Source of the DNA: a virus
Lineage: Duplodnaviria; Heunggongvirae; Uroviricota; Caudoviricetes
IMG/VR virus record: IMGVR_UViG_2740892236_000007
DNA length: 14,507 bases
Reading direction: 5' to 3' (one strand)
Shown here: positions 4,371 to 7,564 of the stretch, piece after piece
How the letters are laid out: each line of letters begins with the position of its first letter
How positions within the stretch are numbered: the first letter of the stretch is position 1
The notes under the pieces: model-generated
Seen by the model: the letters and a program-made list of their open reading frames with translations, nothing else
Database searches by the model: none
Told to the model about the DNA's origin: nothing
Made by a program: the position numbers and the translations under genes

Positions 4371-4541
4371 TCAGGCTACAGCTTTAAGATTTGTCTGGAA
4401 TACTTTGTTGCAATGAGGGCAGATCAAAAGGGCACCTTTTTGTACTCTTGAAAAACTGTGTTCTGACTCTTGGGTGCAGTTTGGGCAGGAACATTTAACG
4501 AGATAATTACGGCGTGATTTTGAGTTTTTACGTTCTGACAT
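4371..4541 (-). CDS. Small zinc-ribbon-like protein, 56 aa (two CxxC pairs)
   Basis: Preferred internal ATG 4541 with AGGAAAAG SD; MSERKNSKSRRNYLVKCSCPNCTQESEHSFSRVQKGALLICPHCNKVFQTNLKAVA; track ORF 4371..4592. Confidence 0.5.
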   Translation of the reverse strand: MSERKNSKSRRNYLVKCSCPNCTQESEHSFSRVQKGALLICPHCNKVFQTNLKAVA

Positions 4542-5292: not shown

Positions 5293-6316
<1,024 letters not shown>

Positions 6317-6527: not shown

Positions 6528-6678
6528 GGTGTTCTGGTTTGTTACAAATTTATCTGAAGCAGTCATTGTTATAATTTTATTATTTGTACCTCTTGAGATT
6601 TCCTTGTTGGTTTTTCTCTCTGATATTTTTTTTCGGACCATTCTGCCCAAGGGCTAATTTCTTCAAAAGGTAATAATT

Positions 6679-6891
6679 ATGTCTAACAAAATGACTGGTT
6701 TAGTGAAATGGTTTAACCCTGAAAAAGGTTTTGGTTTCATCACGCCGAAAGATGGCAGCAAAGATGTGTTTGTCCATTTCTCAGCAATTCAGAGCAACGA
6801 TTTCAAAACATTAACTGAGAATCAGGAAGTTGAATTTGGTATTGAGAACGGACCTAAAGGTCCTGCCGCTGTTCATGTAGTGGCGCTTTGA
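6679..6891 (+). CDS. cspI: Cold-shock protein CspI, 70 aa
   Basis: Translation [70 protein letters not shown]. Confidence 0.95.
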
Positions 6892-7095
6892 GGTAGACAA
6901 TATTACAAACCATATTCACTTTAGATGCCCGTGTTGTCATGGTTCCCAGTATAGAACATCATCTTTTGATGTTTCTGACATGAATCCTTTCGGGGCAAAA
7001 TGTATCTTTTGTAAATCAATGATGATTACATTTGATAATATTTCACAATACTTAAATGCCAGCCGTCTGTCGTTGGATTTAAAAAAGTGAAAATG

Positions 7096-7118
7096 AAGGC
7101 TCCTTCGGGAGCTTTTTT
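7096..7118 (+). terminator. Rho-independent terminator downstream of cspI
   Basis: AAGGCTCC / GGAGCTTT stem with TTCG tetraloop and T-run. Confidence 0.6.
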
Positions 7119-7237
7119 GCTTGGTGTCTATTCGATGGATACTCACATACTACGGTAACATCATGAAAAAAATCATAGTTTTTTTTAACTCTGAACCAGC
7201 AGTGGTAGTGCCAGCGATGACTGGAGTTAACACCATC

Positions 7238-7393
7238 ATGCGTGAATATCCAAATGGCGAAAAAACACACCTTACTGTAATGGCCGCAGGGTTTCCATCT
7301 CTGACCGGAGATCATAAAGTCATTTATGTAGCCGCGGATCGACATGTTACTTCAGAAGAAATTCTGGAAGCAGCAATAAGGCTCTTGAGTTGA
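7238..7393 (+). CDS. ynfN: YnfN-like small protein, 51 aa
   Basis: MREYPNGEKTHLTVMAAGFPSLTGDHKVIYVAADRHVTSEEILEAAIRLLS; in-frame upstream ATGs at 7217 and 7163 are alternative starts. Confidence 0.65.
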   Translation: MREYPNGEKTHLTVMAAGFPSLTGDHKVIYVAADRHVTSEEILEAAIRLLS

Positions 7394-7564
7394 TTTGATG
7401 CTATTGCATTGATAATTCAGGAAAATTCTCTTTGTCTGTTTGTGTAAAATTTAGACTATCGTATGTTGATTATTGCGATGTTTCATCTTATCTTTTACAC
7501 GTTTGCACCATATAATCGACTTACTGTGTAACTGGAAAGTCATAACAGACTAAAAGAGGAAATG

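Follow-up and report, generated by a model that had tools for sequence, protein, structure and literature searches.

Introduction

In Escherichia coli, AUU is said to start only two genes, infC and pcnB (PMC5499595). The infC gene, encoding initiation factor 3 (IF3), begins 3 nucleotides (nt) past the thrS stop codon (UAA GGU AUU), and its AUU/AUC start is kept across bacteria (PMC3592434, PMC5499595). For pcnB, AUU is described as limiting translation of a protein wanted at low level (Binns and Masters 2002, as cited in PMC5499595). Here we analyze a stretch of 14,507 nt from the Caudoviricetes record IMGVR_UViG_2740892236_000007 (the window), in which an open reading frame (ORF) with two cysteine pairs and no canonical start codon follows the cold-shock gene cspI. 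This frame is ynfQ, an already annotated gene of the E. coli Qin prophage, and thus real but not new. ynfQ has been counted among the uncharacterized Qin genes in a recent survey (PMC11551758). Comparative evidence for AUU/AUC initiation in the ynfQ/ymcF family is strong, despite the published count of two genes, and the start codon used is linked to the state of the upstream csp gene.

The open frame downstream of cspI is ynfQ

The window corresponds to the cryptic prophage Qin of E. coli, and its strand runs counter to the K-12 numbering. Megablast of positions 6600–7450 returned 2148 E. coli records (1524 at a minimum of 99% identity), and E. coli chromosomes that carry the ynfQ annotation at 6902–7090 match the window at 100% identity. 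RefSeq places ynfQ at 6902–7090 on the plus strand with an ATT start at 6902; its product, WP_071524604.1, has 62 amino acids (aa) and the RefSeq name “cold shock small protein YmcF”. In K-12 MG1655 the gene is b4724 (1638256..1638444, minus strand), and the annotated gene order is rzpQ - cspI - ynfQ - ynfR - ynfN - gnsB - ydfO. A preliminary description made from the window alone had reported a zinc-ribbon-like frame at 6881–7090 without a canonical start behind cspI. That frame is indeed open and encodes CPCC…CIFC without an internal stop, but the named, annotated gene had not been recognized, and the coding part begins at 6902, not at 6881. The frame opens behind TAG 6878–6880, and the seven codons at 6881–6901 (TGG CGC TTT GAG GTA GAC AAT) hold no ATG, GTG or TTG, so that a canonical start before the first cysteine pair is lacking, as described; ATG 6925–6927, as also described, is out of the ynfQ frame.

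The complete protein matches the Pfam family PF23641 (YmcF-like; residues 1–62 on profile positions 1–62, E 6.9e-32, 109.9 bits vs a cut-off of 27). A search of 5.8 billion proteins yielded 132 homologous clusters, all from Enterobacterales and mostly of 62 aa; homologues have been called at differing lengths, commonly 62 aa, and also at ~70–71 aa and in truncated forms. Across 68 distinct DNA sequences, the median ratio of non-synonymous to synonymous differences per site (pN/pS) is 0.13 at a median pS of 0.81, indicating purifying selection, and mean column entropy amounts to 0.34, 0.20, and 1.21 bits at codon positions 1, 2, and 3. These data bear on two possibilities raised in the preliminary description. 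Many 60–90-codon ORFs arise by chance in the window, and ORF length alone is insufficient in this AT-rich DNA; a chance open frame in the AT-rich 3′ untranslated region (UTR) of cspI is nevertheless ruled out by conservation, with the curated family, the homologues, pN/pS and the codon-position pattern leaving it a negligible probability. A frameshifted or decaying gene that has lost its original ATG would explain the missing canonical start, and Qin is a cryptic prophage with many decaying genes. This reading is extremely unlikely, since the same architecture recurs in the core-genome paralog ymcF, found in 5414 of 5426 complete E. coli genomes (a Qin-type copy is also present in ~2130), and in at least ten genera, the low pN/pS speaks against decay, and the 62-residue Pfam profile begins exactly at the ATT codon. 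Moreover, the intact lambdoid phages Tritos, 2H10, mEp460, and HannyBb carry the cspI-ynfQ module behind their lysis genes. A recent frameshift is further contradicted by the lack of a conserved upstream in-frame extension, many homologues having in-frame stops 9–18 nt upstream. Judged from these sequence comparisons, the chance and pseudogene readings of the ynfQ frame are excluded.

The features of the locus are as follows.
6533–6918, plus strand: match to the cspA-type thermoregulator RNA model (Rfam RF01766)
6679–6891, plus strand: cspI coding sequence, the upstream cistron, 70 aa, stop TGA 6889–6891 (ORF list; RefSeq annotation)
6881–6901, plus strand: seven open, non-coding codons in the ynfQ frame, without a start-like codon; variable in homologues, often with in-frame stops
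6890–6893, plus strand: Shine-Dalgarno (SD) sequence GAGG, which shares bases with the cspI stop and is spaced 8 nt from the start (AGG core 6891–6893 conserved; SD census)
6902–6904, plus strand: ynfQ initiation codon ATT (RefSeq coding sequence start; aligned codons in 83 loci)
6902–7090, plus strand: ynfQ coding sequence, 62 aa and TGA stop, Qin paralog of ymcF (Pfam PF23641; annotation; purifying selection)
6926–6937, plus strand: first cysteine knuckle, C9-P-C11-C12 (44-sequence alignment; variants CPHC, CPRC)
7001–7012, plus strand: second cysteine knuckle, C34-I-F-C37 (44-sequence alignment)
7095–7118, plus strand: terminator-like hairpin with UUCG loop and U-tract, 5 nt past the ynfQ stop (RNA fold; annotation)

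As genes, ynfQ and ymcF are already part of the K-12 reference annotation and of Pfam, to which nothing is added here. The name ynfQ has also been used by VanOrsdel et al. 2018 for a different, 37-aa ORF between ydfJ and ydfK, which has probably since been renamed ynfT, because it sits at the coordinate that opens a later Qin list whose first entry is ynfT. The YmcF-like family is narrow: a profile search of 1.84 billion representatives found 41 clusters only, nearly all of short stand-alone proteins, and the two large proteins in that search (549 and 663 aa) reached an E of only ~3e-4. The ATT start, on account of which ab initio gene callers miss ynfQ, probably also leads to an undercount of the family. 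In the record of phage 2H10 (NC_049950.1, positions 1191–1461 of locus L086) the ynfQ homologue is unannotated, as it is in several other phage records, likely because gene callers disallow ATT starts. Two contigs from metagenome-assembled genomes labeled Veillonella parvula (L004) and Mucilaginibacter sp. (L058) contain a ynfQ/ymcF region that, together with 40 nt upstream, is identical to E. coli; both are probably binning contaminants.

ATT 6902 is the translation start of ynfQ

Homologous loci were collected from one genome per species, anchored on the invariant FRCPCCHGSQYR motif (80 loci), and six further loci were added using a relaxed motif; the start census covers 83 loci from Enterobacteriaceae. 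At the column of ATT 6902, 58 loci have ATT, 21 have ATG, and four have ATC, with ATG found in Klebsiella, Raoultella, Shimwellia, Leclercia, Silvania, some Enterobacter, and Citrobacter sedlakii. The alignment of homologous loci suggested in the preliminary description thus does reveal an intact start, exactly at the annotated ATT, and its proposal of a protein started at a non-canonical codon holds. No room for another start is left in Kosakonia, Klebsiella, Raoultella, Pseudescherichia, and some Citrobacter, whose in-frame stops lie 9–18 nt upstream of this codon. The AGG at −11 to −9 is essentially invariant (entropy 0, 0.4, and 0 bits in the 68 distinct sequences), and GAGG or AAGG stands 7–8 nt upstream of the start in 72 of 77 loci scanned, the other five having AGGAG at 6 nt. 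In csp-linked loci the AGG core is contained within T(A/G)AGG, a csp stop codon fused to the SD; the cspI-ynfQ gap is 10 nt.

Other in-frame codons are poor candidates. ATG 6980 (M27) is the only canonical in-frame start and would yield a 36-aa ORF with the second cysteine pair only, and the ATT at 6914 (I5, +12), the only other recurrent near-cognate codon, is as near-cognate as ATT 6902. M27, however, is not conserved, the consensus being K and other residues occurring too, and conservation within the protein is highest across residues 5–26, which include the first cysteine pair. The +12 codon stands 20 nt from the SD and is CTC in E. coli ymcF, and the 21 homologues with ATG have it at the 6902 column. 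Translation from either codon is therefore very unlikely. A further candidate, an in-frame ATG at −27 from which some annotations start the 70–71-aa Citrobacter versions, was rejected as a general start: it forms part of conserved csp codons (AAT GTN), E. coli ymcF does not have it, and in the window TAG comes directly after it (6875–6880).

As regards the marks of an AUU/AUC gene, ynfQ has an ATT aligned with ATG in orthologs, no alternative start, and an SD at functional spacing. These comparisons identify ATT 6902 as the ynfQ translation start. A literature search found no experimental demonstration of an AUU start for ynfQ or ymcF, be it by N-terminal sequence, toeprint, or start-site Ribo-seq, and none of sensitivity to IF3. 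The TetRP paper considered only NUG start codons, and Weaver et al. 2019 treated only ynfU.

Start codon identity is linked to the state of the upstream csp gene

An intact csp ends 9–10 nt upstream of the start in 46 of the 83 loci. These have ATT (42 loci) or ATC (four loci) and no ATG, and derive from Escherichia, Shigella, Salmonella, Citrobacter, Kosakonia, Scandinavium, Yokenella, Trabulsiella, Siccibacter, Intestinirhabdus, and one P. vulneris copy. Most of the remaining loci keep csp remnants. Where csp is apparently just disrupted (L073, L078), both starts are ATT, and all 21 ATG starts occur in loci with csp decayed or absent. Fifteen of the latter, from Klebsiella, Raoultella, and Shimwellia, retain a recognizable csp relic (…PAVVNVVA…); five, from Leclercia, Silvania, and Enterobacter, have unrelated sequence upstream and, with AGGAG, a stronger SD; and the C. 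sedlakii locus has a degenerate csp fused in frame. Three Atlantibacter loci, with csp decayed or absent, combine ATT with an ATG at codon 2; together with the 21 ATG starts they make up at least four separate groups. In the csp-linked alignment the four-fold degenerate third positions of P10 and G14 show all four bases; the restriction of the third base of the start codon to T or C is therefore not a result of low divergence. The association of ATT/ATC starts with csp may be new, as we found no prior description of it.

The proximity of both genes could also mean that the frame is appended to the C terminus of CspI, either by a +1 frameshift or by readthrough of the stop codon, and not initiated independently. 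Only 10 nt separate the two genes, the csp stop of Kosakonia is in frame with ymcF (9-nt gap), and a csp-like ORF is fused in frame in C. sedlakii. Against such an extension, TAG 6878–6880 of the ynfQ frame lies inside the last cspI codons and confines any shift to ~3 codons, the frame relation varies among genera (9-nt vs 10-nt gaps), the SD is conserved at a fixed spacing, and stand-alone ATG versions without csp exist. The fused csp part of C. sedlakii, in turn, looks decayed, which altogether renders an extension scarcely credible. The fusion in C. sedlakii NBRC 105722 (L009, 2240–2690) reads KEFN for KWFN and VPSS for VHFS, and this csp-like ORF could be a csp in decay or, alternatively, a genuine fusion of Csp and YmcF.

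ynfQ as probable second cistron of the cspI transcript

The match to the cspA thermoregulator model scores 112.8 bits (gathering score 78, E 1e-29) and takes in the 5′ UTR of cspI and its coding sequence, reaching into the ynfQ start; the cspA-terminator part of the model was not matched at the cspI locus. The first terminator-like hairpin follows only past ynfQ and none lies between cspI and ynfQ, hence the two genes share a transcription unit that is at least bicistronic. This hairpin, reported in the preliminary description as a terminator, is borne out by RNA folding (GGCUCC-UUCG-GGAGCU and U5, −14.5 kcal/mol, z −2.6, ~7095–7118). By RNA-seq, ynfQ is co-induced with cspI and ynfN (PMC11228462), and ymcF and ynfQ are co-regulated with cspG, cspH, and cspI (PMC11728337).

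Very probably, ynfQ is the second cistron of a cold-inducible Qin cspI transcript; its initiation at ATT 6902 would be weak and coupled, and its product would have a metal-binding fold. As for infC and pcnB, initiator tRNA would decode the AUU, which would act as a deliberately weak start that is discriminated against by IF3. With the SD placed on the csp stop codon, ribosomes terminating on cspI probably re-initiate, and a large share of initiations would probably come from them; YnfQ output would be tied to CspI translation at a low ratio. The occurrence of ATT/ATC with csp and of ATG without it suggests a start that is kept weak and depends on csp translation or on IF3. We tentatively go one step further, with a confidence somewhat short of even: AUU/AUC may be selected only while the gene follows a translated csp and give way to AUG, sometimes with a stronger SD, after csp loss. 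The strict link of ATT/ATC to an abutting intact csp makes this a testable hypothesis on how expression is set in cold-shock operons. If true, ymcF and ynfQ would be the third and fourth natural E. coli cases of functional AUU initiation, and termination-reinitiation after a very highly translated csp, together with IF3 discrimination, would set the output of a downstream zinc-binding protein in cold acclimation.

Three caveats attach to a weak start coupled to csp. Nine loci of the Pseudescherichia group keep ATT though their csp is decayed, showing that an ATT start may outlast csp, and the genomes are related, with only ~four independent ATG gains. RNAalifold on 37 csp-linked loci found no SD-masking helix, contrary to classical coupling; any coupling would thus proceed by reinitiation or local ribosome delivery and not by unmasking. 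AUU mRNAs are reportedly translated especially poorly in the cold (PMC5499595). As IF3 also rises ~3-fold after cold shock (PMC6511841, PMC6511846), very little YnfQ would be expected from de novo initiation alone, which argues for either an intentionally low output or reinitiation.

A hairpin masking the SD and start was considered as a conserved element and rejected; the window on its own folds GCUUUGAGGU against ACUUUAGAUGC (z −1.95). In seven loci of the Pseudescherichia group (L018, L020, L021, L024, L026, L028, and L052, at ~2480–2510) a mini-ORF encoding MKKG(Y/H)YYY contains the SD. It reads ATG AAA AAA GGA TAC/CAC TAT TAT TAC TAA, ends 8 nt inside the ymcF frame, and is absent in L048 of the same group; this mini-ORF could substitute for csp as upstream cistron.

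Several neighboring features deserve mention. The annotated 21-aa ORF ynfR (MKAPSGAFLLGVYSMDTHILR, 7093–7158, plus strand) begins 2 nt past the ynfQ stop and encloses the entire terminator-like hairpin 7095–7118 with its UUCG loop and U-tract. YnfR-SPA has been reported to be strongly cold-induced (PMC6001520), so both transcription and translation must get through the hairpin at low temperature, as would be consistent with antitermination of the Csp type or with RNA melting. Annotation of ynfN (7163–7393, plus strand) is inconsistent, with 231 nt/76 aa in PGAP genomes vs 156 nt/51 aa in K-12 MG1655. Just upstream of the cspI promoter region lies an embedded spanin pair, formed by the Rz gene rzpQ (5819–6316, plus strand, 165 aa) and its Rz1 partner rzoQ (5994–6266, plus strand, +1 frame), the latter with a lipoprotein signal (…LTSC).

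Conserved cysteines and predicted fold of YnfQ

YnfQ combines a CxCC…CxxC cysteine pattern with the HGSQYRTS and NPFGAKCIFCK core of the YmcF-like family, whose consensus, IHFRCPCCHGSQYRTSxFDVSxxNPFGAKCIFCKSxM, is nearly invariant. Homologues with conserved cysteines, by which the preliminary description proposed to judge the frame, thus exist: 132 homologous clusters were found, and the cysteines are kept in an alignment of 44 sequences. In this alignment, F7, P10, C12, G14, Q16, R18, S20, D23, P29, G31, F36, C37, K38, and M41 are invariant, whereas C9, C11, and C34 are conserved to at least 90%. C11 is replaced by H or R in the Pseudescherichia group (CPHC and CPRC variants); therefore C9, C12, C34, and C37 are the likely metal ligands. 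In the AlphaFold2 model, the predicted local distance difference test (pLDDT) is 80–88 over residues 11–40, and the best structural matches are Cys4 zinc ribbons, all weak and with scores that are not significant. An AlphaFold3 model has been called rubredoxin-like, with Fe (PMC13348028). A zinc-ribbon fold of YnfQ is plausible, if weakly supported. Going by sequence and a model of moderate confidence, the four cysteines would bind one metal ion (Zn, possibly Fe) within a small fold of the ribbon or rubredoxin-like knuckle type, with a variable helix at the C terminus. That YnfQ binds nucleic acid or the ribosome would be a guess.

Comparison with known systems

With Cys4 zinc ribbons such as TFIIE-alpha, the MqsA N-domain, eL43, and NrdR, YnfQ shares two CxxC knuckles ~21 residues apart, which in YnfQ would be placed on short beta-hairpins; sequence homology is absent, and the structural scores are not significant. 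YnfU (4371–4541, minus strand), considered together with the ECs_2282 CxxC family, is likewise a small Qin protein with two CPxC/CxxC knuckles (bioRxiv 10.1101/511675); unlike ynfQ, its gene begins with ATG, is encoded on the other strand, and lacks csp linkage. The ynfU gene (CPNC…CPHC) sits between cspB and the holin gene. Homology of YnfQ with YnfU or the ECs_2282 family was considered and rejected (NCBIfam E 0.002, below cut-off; hhalign probability 1.5%), the CxxC pattern being all that is shared.

With respect to initiation, infC resembles ynfQ in an AUU/AUC start that is kept by selection and stands, with an SD, shortly past an upstream stop (PMC3592434, PMC5499595). The two proteins are unrelated, and the AUU of infC senses IF3 in an autoregulatory loop. 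pcnB shares the AUU start; unlike ynfQ, it is not known to have a closely abutting upstream cistron. The closest relative is ymcF (b4723), the E. coli core-genome paralog located after cspG. It is chromosomal and not prophage-borne, its csp stop is TAA and not TGA, its residue 5 is L and not I, and it overlaps ymcE, where ynfQ instead has ynfR next. The two correspond in several other features: ymcF encodes 62 aa that are ~65% identical to YnfQ with the same four cysteines, it has an ATT start, an SD overlapping the csp stop and a 10-nt gap, and it is followed by a ymcE/ynfN-like gene and gnsA/gnsB.
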